Origin: Escherichia phage vB_EcoM_G10400 | Strand: one strand, 5' to 3' | DNA: 64,000 nt | Sequence record: MK327937.1 | Shown: in pieces, positions 1-6,424 of the stretch | Numbering within the stretch: position 1 is the first letter of the stretch | How the letters are laid out: each line of letters starts with the position of its first letter | Position numbers and translations under genes: made by a program | Notes under the pieces: model-generated | The model's input: the letters and a program-made list of their open reading frames with translations, nothing else | Told to the model about the DNA's origin: nothing | Databases searched by the model: none

Positions 1-80
1 ACATGGATAAAATGGCGGGTCGTTCAGATTTGTCTGTTTTATTAGGTGTTAAGCTACCAAAAATTATCATTGATGAATAA
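1..80 (+). CDS. 3' end of upstream late structural gene, probably head vertex protein gp24 (partial, runs off window start)
   Basis: Open frame 3 from window edge to TAA at 78-80; position immediately upstream of rnlB as in T4. Identity inferred from synteny only. Confidence 0.35.
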   Translation, partial: MDKMAGRSDLSVLLGVKLPKIIIDE

Positions 81-86
81 AACAAA

Positions 87-107
87 GGGACCTTTCGGTC
101 CCTTTTT
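87..107. terminator. Intrinsic terminator hairpin between convergent genes
   Basis: GGGACC-TTTC-GGTCCC stem-loop 87-102 followed by TTTTT; A-run on the other side allows bidirectional function. Confidence 0.6.
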
Positions 108-109
108 AT

Positions 110-1114
110 TTAACTTACCAATTCAATCCAAGCCGGACGAAGTACATCTTGTACCATTTTAACTAATTCCTTCTTAATCAAAGAAGGATTATCCGCTTGA
201 GTTAGAGTAATACCTTCACGAGAAGTTTCTTCCAAAATATCTTGAACCGTTAGTCCCATCACCTTTCCAAAATCTTTTGGACCAATTTCACCAATTTTAG
301 AAATAACGTTATTTACTCGGTTCAGTGTAACATAACAAGCTAAAATTCCCAGCAATTTATTATCAGCTTCTGACAACTCAACTTTAGCTTTAATAGGCTT
401 ATCAGACTTTTTCTTTTCACTAAATTTAGAGTTCTTGCATTTGATGGCTACACGATTGCGATTAGGCAGCCAAGAAGGATAACAAGGTTTCAATACATAT
501 CCTTCAGCGGTAAATACTTCGCCTTTTGCTTCAGCATTCCAAACGCATTTATTTGCATCAACTAATCCAGCATGGTCTACCGTAAAATTATAATCCTGTA
601 CGACAGAATCTAAATCATTTGGCAATTTAATAAGTTCTTCAAATTTACCACGACCTAAAAGTGGAGCCATTTTAAATTTAAATGTATTACAGAATGATTC
701 CATCATATAATCATCGACATAAATTACATCACCACTTTCTGTAGTAACAATAATGTCAAATACATAAAAATCTTTATCACCATAATCGACATTCTTCTGA
801 ATGCCAGGTCCGGCGAATTCACCAAAGACTTGATAAGATACAACCGCTGAAGTTTCCATAATATCTTGTACTGCTTTAATGGAATCAGCGTAATTCTTCA
901 AAATAATTTCATACCCAAAGAAATCTTCAGCAGGAAGAATAGGACCAGTTCGTTTAGCACAAGTTACTTTATCACGCTCAATAATCAATGAGAAATTTGT
1001 GCCGTGAATCTTTTCACGAGCTACCCATTCGCCGCCAGTCAATCCTAAACTGTAAAGTTTTTCAATAAATTTAGAGTTGTAATGATTTTCAAGACTGCTA
1101 TACTTTTTAAACAT
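110..1114 (-). CDS. rnlB: RNA ligase 2 (Rnl2)
   Basis: 334 aa; N-terminus [16 protein letters not shown] and KIHGTN adenylation motif match T4 Rnl2 as I recall it. Confidence 0.9.
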
Positions 1115-1123
1115 AATTAATCC

Positions 1124-1402
1124 TCAAAATGTAATTTCTAACCAATCACCATCACGCTGATCACTATTGACTTTAAAGCTAAATCCTTCTTTTCTCAGCC
1201 AATCACCAATTTCTTCAGTAATCAATTTATCGCGAGCAGTACAATAATAACTAAAATATGTTTTACCTTGTTCAGCTGCTTTATTAGCAAGTTCCGAAAA
1301 ATCTTTAATAAAACACTCTAGCTTAAACTGTTTACTTTTAAGTGCTTTTTCGCGTAATCGATTAGCAAAAGATTCATTTTCATAAAGATCATACTGTTCC
1401 AT
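1124..1402 (-). CDS. Hypothetical small early protein (T4 24.2-like position)
   Basis: 92-aa ORF tightly packed downstream of rnlB on same strand. Confidence 0.55.
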   Translation of the reverse strand: MEQYDLYENESFANRLREKALKSKQFKLECFIKDFSELANKAAEQGKTYFSYYCTARDKLITEEIGDWLRKEGFSFKVNSDQRDGDWLEITF

Positions 1403-1405
1403 TTT

Positions 1406-1603
1406 TCACCTTTTATTAATATGTCTTTTTCTATAGACAACTTTTTCTCGAGTTTCAAATTTATTCTTAGCAGTCATAGCTCGAGCCCATAATACAGCCA
1501 CTTCTTTCGCCTGTAAGTTTAATTCACGAGCAATTTCAATGAATGACTTTCCAGACTCATGAAGAGTAAACACCACAACCTCAGTTCTCATAATCAATCT
1601 CAT
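1406..1603 (-). CDS. Hypothetical small protein, possible HTH (T4 24.3-like position)
   Basis: 65-aa ORF; start uncertain (internal Met possible). Confidence 0.45.
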   Translation of the reverse strand: MRLIMRTEVVVFTLHESGKSFIEIARELNLQAKEVAVLWARAMTAKNKFETREKVVYRKRHINKR

Positions 1604-1670
1604 GTTATCGAGTTGATGCCATTATATACATCATTTTCTGAGTATGTTTTGTGTGCTTTCAAAATGAAGA

Positions 1671-1688
1671 AAGGGGCCGAAGCCCCTT
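1671..1688 (-). terminator. Stem-loop with tetraloop downstream of hoc
   Basis: AAGGGGC-CGAA-GCCCCTT hairpin just 3' of hoc stop on minus strand. Confidence 0.5.
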
Positions 1689-1704
1689 ATGATTATGATT
1701 ATGA

Positions 1705-3123
1705 TTATGGATAGGTATAGATGATACCAGTTTCTAAAGCAGTTTTATGAATGATGTATCCATTGCGTGATTCTTGAACATCAACTTCTGGATAGTCTTT
1801 CATCATCTTCTGAAGAGTGTAACGATGCAGGTAGTATTTACTGTCTGGATCTTCAGTTTTCCAATCTTTACCTTCTTCGGTCATTTTTTGGATTTCATCC
1901 ATAACCCACCAACCGCACCAGATATAAGCTGAAGTACGATGTGGAAGAGGATGAACATAAGGTAATTCACCTTCTGGCTCTGGAGCAACTTTATCAGTTA
2001 CCTGAACTTGACCTTCCGCCGTAATAGTTTTGCTATCATAATCAGTTGCAGTAACGACAGCAGTAACTTCAATAGTTTGACTTCCAATAGATGAGGTATC
2101 AACGGTATATACATTAGTTGACCCTTCTACAGGAGAAGAATCTTTCTTCCATGAATACGCAATTTGCGCTTCTTCTGGAGCATCAGTGACATTAGCAGTA
2201 AATGTAGCCGAAGCATCTTGTTGAACGTTAATAGAAGGAGGAGTCAATGTAACCTGTGGATTCATTGTCTTCTTATTAACTGTTAATGATACTTCATTCG
2301 AAGTAACTTCCTTTTCATTGTAATTTTCAGCAGTTACTTGGGCTACGCATTTAATTCTTTTTACTCCACTTGTAGTAGGAGTATAGCTAAATGTAGCGTT
2401 AGTTGCTTCACCCACAGGAGAATCATCTACATACCACTGATACGTAGCAGATGCCCCATCAGGTTGAGAAGCTAAGGCAGCAGTAAATTCAACGGCTGTT
2501 CCAATCACTCCAGCTGGAGGACTATCAGGAGTTACTGCCAAGGTAGTCGTCTGCGTCTTTTTATTAACAGTCAATGATACTTCATTAGAAGTAACGCTTA
2601 GTGCATCATAATCTGCCGCAGTTACTTGAGCTACACACTTGATTTTTTTAACTCCGCTTGTGTCAGGAGTGTAATTGAATGTAGCGTCAGTTGCTTCGTC
2701 TACAGGAGAACCGTCAACGTGCCATTGATACGTAGCGTTTGCACCTGATGGCTGTGAAGCTAAGGCAGCGGTAAATTCAATTGGAGTTCCAATCACTCCA
2801 GCATCAGGGCTACCAGGAGTTACAGCTAAAGTAGTTGTTTGTGTCTTATTTTGAACTGTGATAGTTGTACTAATTTCTGCTGTTTCAGGTTCAGATTCTG
2901 CAACTTGATTGGTTGCAACTACTTTAATAGTCTTTTGACCGGCAGGTCCTTTTAGTACATAACTAAAAGTTGCTGACGTTTCTTCCTGTGGAGCGTCGTC
3001 TACAGTCCAAGCATATGTAATAGGTCCATCTCCAGTTTGACCACTGGGTGTAGCAGTAAACTGCTGAGTCTGATCTATAACTCCAGTAGGTGTTTTAGGA
3101 GTTATATCAACTGTAAAAGCCAT
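1705..3123 (-). CDS. hoc: Highly immunogenic outer capsid protein Hoc, 472 aa, with five rather than four domains
   Basis: C-terminal capsid-binding block YIWCGWWVMDEIQKMTEEGKDWKTEDPDSKYYLHRYTLQKMMKDYPEV matches T4 Hoc; N-terminal Ig-like repeats; an extra ~96-aa repeat relative to the 376-aa T4 Hoc I recall. Confidence 0.9.
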   Translation of the reverse strand: MAFTVDITPKTPTGVIDQTQQFTATPSGQTGDGPITYAWTVDDAPQEETSATFSYVLKGPAGQKTIKVVATNQVAESEPETAEISTTITVQNKTQTTTLAVTPGSPDAGVIGTPIEFTAALASQPSGANATYQWHVDGSPVDEATDATFNYTPDTSGVKKIKCVAQVTAADYDALSVTSNEVSLTVNKKTQTTTLAVTPDSPPAGVIGTAVEFTAALASQPDGASATYQWYVDDSPVGEATNATFSYTPTTSGVKRIKCVAQVTAENYNEKEVTSNEVSLTVNKKTMNPQVTLTPPSINVQQDASATFTANVTDAPEEAQIAYSWKKDSSPVEGSTNVYTVDTSSIGSQTIEVTAVVTATDYDSKTITAEGQVQVTDKVAPEPEGELPYVHPLPHRTSAYIWCGWWVMDEIQKMTEEGKDWKTEDPDSKYYLHRYTLQKMMKDYPEVDVQESRNGYIIHKTALETGIIYTYP

Positions 3124-3132
3124 AAGTTATCC

Positions 3133-3813
3133 TTATTTTAATGTTACGAAAGAAGAATTACGTGTTTCACGAATTAGAACTGATCCGTCACGATTAATGT
3201 AGTAAATTAAGCTAAATAAAGTTTGGTGTGCCGACGCATGTTCAAAACTAGTTGGGTGAGATTTCCAATCTGGGGTTTCAGCAATCCATTGATAAATCCA
3301 CCAAGGAACAGTGCAGAATCCTGGATTTTTTCCAATCAGCTGAAGATTCGGACTAAAGTTTTCCGGAAGAGTAAATACAGACGGCTTTTCGGATTCAATA
3401 ATCTCAGCTACAGCCTGTTCGAATTTTTCTTCAACAAAAGGAGTATCTTCAATTAAAACAGTGGTATTTTCAGGAATTTTATCCGTTTCTACTACTTCAA
3501 TTTTAATGTCAGATTTAACCGGAGAATCAATCAGAAGTGCTGCCTCTGGATTGACTTCTTCATCGTCATATTTTAATCCGTCTGCGGCATCAGCAGCATC
3601 AATTAAGTCTTTAATAGATAACCCATCAGTCTCTGGCATAGGTTCACTAGCGAGCTTCTGGAGAGCTTCTTCAATATCATTAACGATATTATCAAAAGAT
3701 TTATTCTTTTTGACCTTTATACCAAACTGTTCAGCATATTCAGCTAATTTAGCTTTAGCTTCTTTATTATCATCAAGAGCCTTCAGCTCTGCAATATAAT
3801 CTTTATCTATCAT
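3133..3813 (-). CDS. inh: Inhibitor of prohead protease gp21 (Inh)
   Basis: 226 aa, position between hoc and segE as in T4; start ATG at 3811-3813 lies inside the duplicated 55-bp block so the true start context is ambiguous. Confidence 0.7.
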   Translation of the reverse strand: MIDKDYIAELKALDDNKEAKAKLAEYAEQFGIKVKKNKSFDNIVNDIEEALQKLASEPMPETDGLSIKDLIDAADAADGLKYDDEEVNPEAALLIDSPVKSDIKIEVVETDKIPENTTVLIEDTPFVEEKFEQAVAEIIESEKPSVFTLPENFSPNLQLIGKNPGFCTVPWWIYQWIAETPDWKSHPTSFEHASAHQTLFSLIYYINRDGSVLIRETRNSSFVTLK

Positions 3814-3835
3814 AATATTTCCTCAGTATAAATAT
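3781..3835. repeat. 55-bp direct repeat, copy 1 (flank of inserted adapter)
   Basis: Identical to 3958-4012 (cttcagctctgcaatataatctttatctatcataatatttcctcagtataaatat). Confidence 0.95.
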
Positions 3836-3901
3836 CTGTCTCTTATACACATCTCCGAGCCCACGAGACCGTACTAGATCTCGTATGCCGTCTTCTGCTT
3901 G
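3836..3901 (+). other. Illumina Nextera adapter read-through (mosaic end + read 2 adapter + 8-nt i7 index + P7), non-biological
   Basis: CTGTCTCTTATACACATCTCCGAGCCCACGAGAC (3836-3869), CGTACTAG (3870-3877), ATCTCGTATGCCGTCTTCTGCTTG (3878-3901) read directly in the sequence. Confidence 0.95.
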
Positions 3902-4012
<111 letters not shown>

Positions 4013-4039
4013 AGATATATTTATTACTCGGAAAATAGT

Positions 4040-4657
4040 ATGTACCACTTTGTATATGAAACAACAAATCTAATAAATGGTAAAAAGTATATAGGAAAAC
4101 ACTCTACTGATGACTTGAATGATGGTTACCTTGGTTCCGGTAAGGCAATTCAGCAGGCTATAAAGAAATATGGTGAAAACAATTTCTCTAGAACAATACT
4201 AAAAGAGTTTAAAACTTCCGAAGAAGCGTACATGTATGAAGAAGAAATTATAACTCCTGAAATAATAAAAAGCAAAAATTATTATAATATGAAACCTGGT
4301 GGAATTGGTGGAATTGTTATGACTACAGAGGTTATAGCAAAGATGAAAGAATCTTCCGCTAAGAGATTTGAAAACTCACCGGGCACGGTATTAGGTACAA
4401 CTTGTTACACTAATGGAACTAAAAATATTTTTATTAAACCTGGAGAACTTGTTCCAGAAGGATTTGTAAAAGGAATGGTTCATCCTAATAGAAAGTCCAG
4501 AAAAGGATGTAAAGTCAAACCGACTACCACAGGAACTTTTTGGGTCAATAACGGTGCAATAAATAAATTAATACAACCAGACGGTATTATTCCCGACGGA
4601 TTTATTAAAGGTCGTCTCATGAAAAGAGATTCTAAAGGCAAATTTAGTAAGGCATAA
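4040..4657 (+). CDS. segE: GIY-YIG homing endonuclease SegE
   Basis: 205 aa; N-terminal GIY-YIG module (YIGKHS ... GYLGSG); located between inh and uvsW where T4 segE sits. Confidence 0.75.
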   Translation: MYHFVYETTNLINGKKYIGKHSTDDLNDGYLGSGKAIQQAIKKYGENNFSRTILKEFKTSEEAYMYEEEIITPEIIKSKNYYNMKPGGIGGIVMTTEVIAKMKESSAKRFENSPGTVLGTTCYTNGTKNIFIKPGELVPEGFVKGMVHPNRKSRKGCKVKPTTTGTFWVNNGAINKLIQPDGIIPDGFIKGRLMKRDSKGKFSKA

Positions 4658-4659
4658 TT

Positions 4660-6168
4660 ATGGATATTAAAGTACATTTTCACGACTTCAGCCATGTACG
4701 CATCGATTGTGAAGAGAGCACGTTCCACGAATTAAGAGATTTCTTTTCGTTTGAGGCCGATGGATATAGATTTAATCCTCGCTTCAGATATGGCAACTGG
4801 GATGGACGAATCCGTCTTTTAGATTATAATCGTCTTCTTCCATTTGGCTTAGTCGGGCAAATTAAAAAGTTCTGTGATAACTTTGGCTATAAAGCCTGGA
4901 TTGACCCACAAATTAACGAAAAAGAAGAATTATCAAGAAAAGATTTTGATGAATGGCTTTCTAAATTAGAAATCTATTCAGGAAATAAAAGAATTGAACC
5001 GCATTGGTATCAAAAAGATGCAGTGTTCGAAGGATTAGTTAATCGTCGTAGAATTCTTAATCTTCCAACATCCGCTGGTAAATCTTTAATTCAAGCTTTG
5101 CTTGCGCGATATTATTTGGAAAATTATGAAGGCAAAATTCTTATCATTGTTCCAACAACTGCTCTGACAACTCAGATGGCTGATGACTTTGTTGACTATC
5201 GTTTATTCAGTCATGCAATGATAAAGAAAATCGGCGGTGGAGCATCAAAAGATGATAAATATAAAAATGATGCACCGGTCGTTGTTGGTACATGGCAAAC
5301 TGTAGTTAAACAACCAAAAGAATGGTTCTCACAGTTTGGAATGATGATGAATGATGAATGCCATCTTGCTACAGGAAAAAGTATTTCATCTATCATATCA
5401 GGTTTAAATAACTGTATGTTTAAATTTGGTCTATCTGGTTCATTACGTGATGGCAAAGCCAATATCATGCAGTATGTTGGAATGTTTGGTGAAATATTTA
5501 AGCCAGTAACGACTTCTAAGTTAATGGAAGATGGACAAGTAACTGAGCTAAAAATTAATAGTATTTTTCTTCGCTATCCCGATGAGTTCACTACTAAATT
5601 AAAGGGAAAAACTTATCAAGAAGAAATAAAAATTATTACTGGGCTTAGTAAAAGAAATAAATGGATCGCTAAATTAGCTATTAAGCTTGCGCAAAAAGAT
5701 GAAAACGCTTTTGTCATGTTTAAACATGTATCACATGGTAAAGCTATTTTCGATTTAATTAAAAATGAATACGATAAAGTTTATTACGTATCAGGGGAAG
5801 TTGATACCGAAACCCGCAATATAATGAAAACCTTAGCTGAAAATGGTAAAGGAATAATTATAGTAGCTAGTTATGGTGTATTTTCTACTGGTATTTCAGT
5901 TAAAAATCTGCATCACGTTGTTTTAGCGCACGGTGTTAAATCAAAAATCATTGTATTACAAACAATCGGTCGTGTATTACGTAAGCATGGTTCTAAGACA
6001 ATAGCAACCGTCTGGGACCTCATAGATGATTGTGGCGTTAAGCCAAAATCTGCTAATACGAAAAAGAAATATGTTCATTTGAACTATCTTTTAAAACACG
6101 GCATTGATCGTATTCAGCGCTACGCAGATGAAAAATTTAATTACGTAATGAAAACAGTTAATTTATAA
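4660..6168 (+). CDS. uvsW: UvsW RNA-DNA and DNA helicase
   Basis: 502 aa; SF2 helicase motifs (PTSAGKS Walker A, DECH box); synteny. Confidence 0.9.
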   Translation: MDIKVHFHDFSHVRIDCEESTFHELRDFFSFEADGYRFNPRFRYGNWDGRIRLLDYNRLLPFGLVGQIKKFCDNFGYKAWIDPQINEKEELSRKDFDEWLSKLEIYSGNKRIEPHWYQKDAVFEGLVNRRRILNLPTSAGKSLIQALLARYYLENYEGKILIIVPTTALTTQMADDFVDYRLFSHAMIKKIGGGASKDDKYKNDAPVVVGTWQTVVKQPKEWFSQFGMMMNDECHLATGKSISSIISGLNNCMFKFGLSGSLRDGKANIMQYVGMFGEIFKPVTTSKLMEDGQVTELKINSIFLRYPDEFTTKLKGKTYQEEIKIITGLSKRNKWIAKLAIKLAQKDENAFVMFKHVSHGKAIFDLIKNEYDKVYYVSGEVDTETRNIMKTLAENGKGIIIVASYGVFSTGISVKNLHHVVLAHGVKSKIIVLQTIGRVLRKHGSKTIATVWDLIDDCGVKPKSANTKKKYVHLNYLLKHGIDRIQRYADEKFNYVMKTVNL

Positions 6169-6193
6169 GGGCTTCGGCCCTTTGGAGAAAAAG

Positions 6194-6424
6194 ATGTTAC
6201 TAGAATTTAAACAATTTCTTTATGAAGCTTCTATTGATGAATTTATGGGTAAAATTGCCTCTTGTCAAACATTAGAAGGTTTAGAAGAACTTGAAGCTTA
6301 TTATAAGAAAAGAGTTAAAGAAACTGAATTAAAAGATACTGATGACATCTCTGTGAGAGATGCTTTGGCAGGAAAAAGAGCTGAATTAGAAGATTCAGAT
6401 GATGAAGTAGAAGAAAGCTTTTAA
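6194..6424 (+). CDS. uvsW.1: UvsW.1 small acidic protein
   Basis: ATG at 6194 preceded by GGAG; ORF track start at 6182 is a TTG; 76 aa as in T4. Confidence 0.7.
   Translation: MLLEFKQFLYEASIDEFMGKIASCQTLEGLEELEAYYKKRVKETELKDTDDISVRDALAGKRAELEDSDDEVEESF

Follow-up and report, generated by a model that had tools for sequence, protein, structure and literature searches.

Two paralogous Ig-like domain-2 cassettes in the five-domain Hoc of Escherichia phage vB_EcoM_G10400, a common allele among T4-type phages

The DNA considered here is a stretch of 64,000 nucleotides (referred to as "the window" throughout) from sequence record MK327937.1 of Escherichia phage vB_EcoM_G10400, a Tequatrovirus whose genome was published by Korf et al. 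2019 (PMC6563267). The genes rnlB-24.2-24.3-hoc-inh-segE-uvsW follow one another in the window in the same order as in the T4 reference genome (NC_000866), and hoc lies between 24.3 and inh. The assignment of this gene to hoc, which had initially been made from the letters of the sequence alone, is borne out both by its T4 synteny, i.e., its 24.3 and inh neighbors, and by a phmmer search of the PDB, in which the predicted protein matches T4 Hoc chains with E = 1.9e-212 (query residues 201-472 aligned to residues 105-376 of the T4 Hoc chain). The protein is also 100% identical in amino acid sequence to the Hoc deposited for vB_EcoM_G10400. The product of hoc is a highly immunogenic outer capsid protein, which in T4 is present as 155 copies at the hexamer centers, bound through the C-terminal domain. 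No T4-type late promoter TATAAATA for hoc was found on the minus strand of window positions 1-4100, and this sequence is also absent from the 300 nt upstream of hoc in T4. The 120 nt on the 5' side of hoc in the window, consisting of the 3' end of inh and a ribosome-binding site, are almost the same as in T4, so that the gene is presumably expressed as it is in T4. The coordinates of hoc, of the domains of its product and of a nearby insertion that is discussed further below are collected in Table 1.

Table 1. Positions, in the window, of hoc, of the segments that encode the Hoc domains and of the adapter insertion near the gene
Feature	Window position	Strand	Hoc residues	Remarks
hoc	1705-3123	-		Intact ORF of 1419 nt; 472 aa plus stop; predicted 50.8 kDa, pI 4.4
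Ig-like domain 1 (D1), orthologous to T4 Hoc domain 1	2848-3123	-	1-92	78% aa and 84.4% nt identity to T4 D1; pLDDT ~84-94
Repeat unit 1, type A domain-2 paralog	2560-2847	-	93-188	No direct T4 counterpart
Repeat unit 2, type B domain-2 paralog	2272-2559	-	189-284	Closer counterpart of T4 Hoc domain 2
Ig-like domain 4 (D4), orthologous to T4 Hoc domain 3	1996-2271	-	285-376	86% aa identity to T4 D3; confident predicted beta-sandwich
C-terminal capsid-binding domain	1708-1995	-	377-472	93/96 aa identical to T4 Hoc 281-376
Adapter insertion	3836-3957			inh-segE intergenic; Nextera transposase adapter CTGTCTCTTATACACATCTCCGAGCCCACGAGAC, index CGTACTAG, P7 sequence ATCTCGTATGCCGTCTTCTGCTTG, 56-nt poly(A) run
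55-nt direct repeat flanking the adapter	3781-3835 and 3958-4012			

An AlphaFold2 model of the protein, built on a shallow alignment of 44 Hocs, consists over residues 1-376 of four successive all-beta sandwich domains (pLDDT ~84-95), among which repeat units 1 and 2 share an identical strand pattern and have pLDDT values of >90 and ~90, respectively. Foldseek matches of the model include the four-Ig proteins Dscam1 and ICAM-5 D1-D4 as well as the RB49 Hoc structure 3SHS. The C-terminal domain is poorly modeled from this shallow alignment, with pLDDT <50 for much of residues 379-472, and the case for capsid binding is therefore made from sequence identity to T4. In that domain the aromatic residues of T4 are kept at 13 of 13 positions, including the WCGWW motif, dN relative to T4 is 0.013, and the domain is invariant in the alignment of 44 Hocs. 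Matches above the curated Pfam cut-offs were obtained for PKD (39.3 bits, as compared to a cut-off of 23.5), PKD_4 and Ig_2. Together with BiPBP_C, these matches fall over the two repeat units, with BiPBP_C and Ig_2 lying within unit 1 and the best PKD stretch (residues 195-267) within unit 2. The Ig_3 and I-set families match at residues 289-373, in both cases under the curated cut-offs (just under for Ig_3). The original prediction had suggested Big_2-like domains for this protein; Big_2 is absent among the Pfam matches to the window Hoc at E <= 1, and the families named above appear instead.

Within hoc, Tandem Repeats Finder reports a single array, at 2267-2847, with a period of 288, 2.0 copies and 78% matches. 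The original prediction had placed a duplicated domain at 2270-2847, which is at most 2 nt away from the in-frame unit boundaries, and had judged the two copies to be about four-fifths identical as proteins; when compared in frame, the units are identical at 77 of 96 amino acids (80.2%) and at 222 of 288 nucleotides (77.1%). The length of T4 Hoc on which the prediction leaned is also correct (1131 nt and 376 aa in NC_000866), and its description of a 472-aa Hoc with five domains, as compared to four in T4, agrees with the intact 472-aa reading frame, in which the additional domain is a paralog of T4 domain 2. Both units start with KTQTTTLAVTP, and unit 1 can be told apart by specific peptides such as ...QPSGANATYQWHVDGSPVDEATDATFNYTPDTSGVK. 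The number of nucleotide matches lies far above chance expectation (z ~20; mean of 74 matches, sd 7.3 and maximum 100 over 5000 shuffles of unit 2) and above the 114 matches of the runner-up among the in-frame 288-nt registers of hoc. The two units are adjacent, of domain length and far closer to each other (80% amino acid identity) than to the other Ig-like domains, D1 and D4 (28-40%), and are in this sense an in-frame tandem domain duplication. The 66 nucleotide differences between them are distributed as 12, 13 and 41 over codon positions 1, 2 and 3, and the Nei-Gojobori estimates for unit 1 versus unit 2 are dS = 1.01, dN = 0.135 and omega = 0.13. A dS of ~1.0 in combination with this dN/dS ratio indicates that the copies are old and that purifying selection has acted on both. 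The low ratio and the confident fold predicted for each copy mark the pair as domains that have been kept by selection rather than as a pseudo-repeat.

A clear assembly artefact does exist in the same window, ~700 nt from hoc, and it is the one observation that favors reading the second copy as a false duplication made by a short-read assembler. At that site, the direct repeat that flanks the adapter sequences (Table 1) has the length of the SPAdes k-mer, 55, that was used for the phage set to which vB_EcoM_G10400 belongs (PMC6563267), and an insertion of 177 nt is missing from relatives; this is adapter contamination that was assembled into the genome. The copies within hoc, in contrast, differ at 66 of 288 nucleotides (77% identity) and share no in-register exact run longer than 17 nt, and are thus too diverged for assembly from 300-nt reads with k = 55 to confuse them. 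Their differences concentrate at third codon positions with the frame intact, and for unit 1 as well as for unit 2 near-identical units are known from other phages. In addition, ~240 independent phage records have the two-unit architecture, as do hundreds of assemblies from metagenomes or Logan, and the independent assemblies that carry it include 28 clusters of 472-aa Hocs. From the copy divergence, the intact frame and the independent occurrences it follows that hoc is unaffected by the adapter artefact. A false duplication is extremely improbable and can be regarded as effectively refuted, and the original view that the repeat is no recent assembly collapse or expansion stands on the divergence of the copies, the purifying selection on them and their hundreds of independent occurrences.

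The abundance of the two-unit form was estimated by tblastn against the phage collection, with unit 1 as the sole query (E <= 1e-25), which yielded 886 separate copies in 613 phage records. Of 60 records drawn at even spacing from the 613, one copy is present in 34, two copies in 24 and three in 2 (~57% with one, ~40% with two and ~3% with three or more), and by this 60-record sample the five-domain form of Hoc is present in about 40% of sequenced T4-type phages. When the best 120 Hoc protein clusters at 90% identity are sorted by length, 81 are of 376 aa, 28 of 472 aa and 8 of 568-570 aa. Several of the 472-aa clusters have 58-167 members each, which amounts to several hundred sequences overall from independent assemblies. 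The longest Hocs in the Tequatrovirus series examined are those of UGKSEcP1, with three units and 568 aa (L008 1025-2731), and slur08, with four units and 664 aa (L006 314-2308, LN881733.1). Since ~40% of the sampled records have two units and since three- and four-unit forms also exist, the form seen in the window is an ordinary one. IMG/VR contributed 21 loci, a number that does not suffice for an independent census; the span of the Hoc match among them ranges from ~176 to 551 aa. Two peculiarities of database records were encountered along the way. A 32-kb record named "Staphylococcus phage SAJK-IND" (MG010123.1) contains a T4-type hoc that is 94.8% identical to that of the window, and is probably mislabeled or contaminated. 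In MZ501066.1 (Escherichia phage FriedrichMiescher) and in vB_EcoM-101117BS1, hoc is split into two CDSs ("Hoc part 1 / part 2") with an aligned span that is 1 nt off the 1419 nt of the window gene, which suggests that some two-unit phages have frameshifted hoc alleles or sequencing errors.

Each unit in the 120 clusters was typed by its nearest reference, with window unit 1 standing for type A, window unit 2 for type B and UGKSEcP1 unit 3 for type C. The arrays observed are A, B, A-B, A-C, B-B, B-C, A-B-B and A-B-C. Among the 120 typed clusters there are no B-A and no C-first arrays; no other type stands before A and none after C. The third unit type occupies the final position of both the three-unit array of UGKSEcP1 and the four-unit array of slur08. 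Clean paralog clades were looked for by hierarchical clustering of 161 units and were not obtained, in that the units do not separate by position. Barcodes of diagnostic sites reveal the units to be extensively mosaic across phages, which accounts for the lack of clean clades and means that the A/B/C typing is coarse and fuzzy. The single unit of T4 is closer to window unit 2 (87.8% nt identity, dS 0.28) than to unit 1 (79.9%, dS 0.81), and the former dS resembles that of the flanking orthologous domains in the comparison of the window with T4 (0.23-0.49). This affinity changes along the T4 unit, however, since its nt 241-264 match unit 1 at 24 of 24 positions and unit 2 at 15 of 24, with a weaker lean toward unit 1 over nt 217-240. 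The 376-aa Hoc of Yersinia phage PYPS2T has a D1 that is 100% identical to D1 of the window and a sole unit that is 99.7% identical in nucleotides to window unit 1; unit 2 is missing, and nucleotide identity to the window falls to 93.8% in the next domain. The 5' half of the PYPS2T gene is thus nearly that of the window and yet has one unit, which indicates that copy number changes by recombination between close relatives. Unit 1 of UGKSEcP1 is likewise 99.7% identical in nucleotides to window unit 1. Tentatively, and with more doubt than confidence, we suggest that domain 2 of Tequatrovirus Hoc may be an ordered cassette array of the general form A-B-(B)-C, in which a standing polymorphism of 1 to 4 copies is reshuffled by recombination among co-circulating phages.

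The origin of the A-B array can be viewed in more than one way. Unequal recombination between co-infecting phages with diverged single-copy alleles of domain 2 might have joined the two units, in which case their 23% divergence would predate the "duplication". Consistent with such a history, single-unit Hocs exist both as type A (18 clusters, as well as the PYPS2T unit mentioned above) and as type B (63 clusters, T4 included), units are strongly mosaic across phages, and T4-type phages recombine at high frequency. The type order is nonetheless A before B before C in 35 of 35 multi-unit clusters, and also in slur08 as judged by nucleotide identity, and a constant order of this kind is better explained by one ancestral ordered array with subsequent losses than by repeated independent joinings. 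Moreover, A and B are separated by a larger dS (1.0) than are the flanking orthologous domains of the window and T4, and a joining of single-copy alleles seems to us unlikely.

It is a serious possibility, which we would place somewhat short of an even chance, that a multi-unit array is ancestral for Tequatrovirus and that the four-domain Hoc of T4 is the "short" form, derived by deletion. By dS, units A and B predate the split between the window phage and T4, and PYPS2T and the window differ essentially by the missing unit 2. The composition of the T4 unit, which is B-like at nt 1-216, A-leaning at 217-240 and A-identical at 241-264, would be expected if the paralogs had coexisted and recombined in the ancestry of T4. 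Five domains are also found in the Hocs of the related phages Pinarejo, JS10 and PMBT63, but the similar pair in JS10 and PMBT63 is D3/D4 (59% and 77% identity, respectively) and not D2/D3, which points to independent duplications of another domain, and one-unit forms make up the majority (~57% of the 60-record sample). The description of the additional domain as "extra", as first put forward, holds with T4 as the reference; a loss of units in T4 is equally conceivable. To judge from these sequences, Hoc domain duplication is recurrent.

Among the closest known counterparts of the window protein is T4 Hoc (NP_049793; PDB 5VF3, 8T1X, 8T9R), to which it is similar in position, in domain 1, the last Ig-like domain and the C-terminal domain (Table 1), in the type of domain 2 (81-85% amino acid identity) and in acidity (pI 4.4 for the window and 4.7 for T4). 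The difference resides in the domain-2 cassettes, of which T4 has one, in a protein of 376 aa and 40.4 kDa, and the window has two, in a protein of 472 aa and 50.8 kDa. The 472-aa Hocs of HP3, teqsoen, phiD1, ime09 and AR1 have the architecture of the window protein with allelic differences, and the hoc genes of teqsoen, HP3, phiD1 and ime09 are 94-97% identical to that of the window in whole-gene DNA comparisons. The Hocs of UGKSEcP1/2 (568-570 aa) and slur08 (664 aa) differ from it by allele and by number of units. Klebsiella phage PMBT63 and Escherichia phage JS10 (Dhakavirus) resemble the window phage in having four Ig-like domains and a capsid-binding domain, although their similar D3/D4 pair, unlike that of the window, is homologous to T4 domain 3. 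The five-domain Hocs of other genera were accordingly rejected as carriers of the window duplication, in JS10 and PMBT63 on the basis of the D3/D4 pair and in Pinarejo by the mere 40% identity of its D2 and D3.

Variation in the number of Hoc domains is well documented. In Fokine et al. 2023 (PMC10385173), 650 Hoc homologues are described as having a conserved capsid-binding domain and 1-10 Ig-like domains, and an aromatic-rich interface with gp23 is described as well. A three-domain Hoc variant has been reported for phage PNJ-9 (PMC11853027), and the PMBT63 Hoc has been noted to have an additional Ig-like domain relative to T4, with Hoc domain number varying widely (PMC13435897). Our literature searches found no paper on a 1-4-copy series of domain 2 within Tequatrovirus, nor does such a series for Tequatrovirus appear in the searched passages of Fokine et al. 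2023 (PMC10385173). The Tequatrovirus copy series is a refinement of the known variation in Hoc domain number and not a new kind of variation. The hoc gene of the window is a common allele of a published genome, variable Ig-domain number is already published, and the feature by itself changes no current understanding.

Taken as a whole, the evidence argues, with a probability of about 0.9, that the window contains a genuine, functional Tequatrovirus hoc allele whose product is a five-domain fiber with two paralogous domain-2 cassettes, drawn from a recombining array of 1-4 copies. The protein probably assembles on the capsid, its conserved C-terminal domain docking, as its sequence suggests, at the center of gp23 hexamers, from which four Ig-like (PKD/Ig-type) domains, one more than in T4, would project outward. 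In this reading, the added length comes from two domain-2 cassettes, A then B, of an ordered tandem array that has 1 to 4 copies in different natural T4-type phages and is reshuffled by homologous or unequal recombination. The T4 Hoc fiber is ~180 Å (roughly 18 nm) long (PMC10385173). By comparison, the fiber of the window phage may be longer by about one Ig domain (~4 nm, or about a quarter) and may have gained one potential binding module. The "bacteriophage adherence to mucus" model appeals to Hoc, which is also in wide use as a display scaffold. By analogy with T4, the Ig-like domains may bind mucin glycans and bacterial surfaces weakly and reversibly, and a longer fiber could alter reach or avidity for these ligands. 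The original suggestion that domain number may change capsid display geometry is plausible. Natural Hocs with 1-4 cassettes could serve for the construction of isogenic length variants and thereby for comparisons of mucin binding, aggregation and immunogenicity. If the length polymorphism is selectively maintained, e.g., through adherence to mucus or bacterial surfaces versus exposure to antibodies, these Hocs would represent a natural series for learning how fiber length tunes phage behavior.

Two observations concern genes on the inh side of hoc. In the uvsW region (window 4660-6424), uvsW is a 502-aa ORF that ends at 6168 and is followed by a GC-rich hairpin, GGGCTTCGGCCC, and then by a separate 80-aa ORF at 6182-6424 (TTG start as listed), presumably uvsW.1. 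The T4 RefSeq genome has a single fused uvsW of 587 aa, from which the window differs by a 1-nt indel and 3 substitutions at the stop codon. Between inh and uvsW, at the site that segE occupies in T4, the window has an ORF for a GIY-YIG homing endonuclease (4040-4657). In UGKSEcP1 (L008 284-335), the endonuclease is apparently absent and the helicase gene lies ~50 nt from inh; the mobile endonuclease gene near hoc seems to be polymorphic, present in some phages and absent from others.
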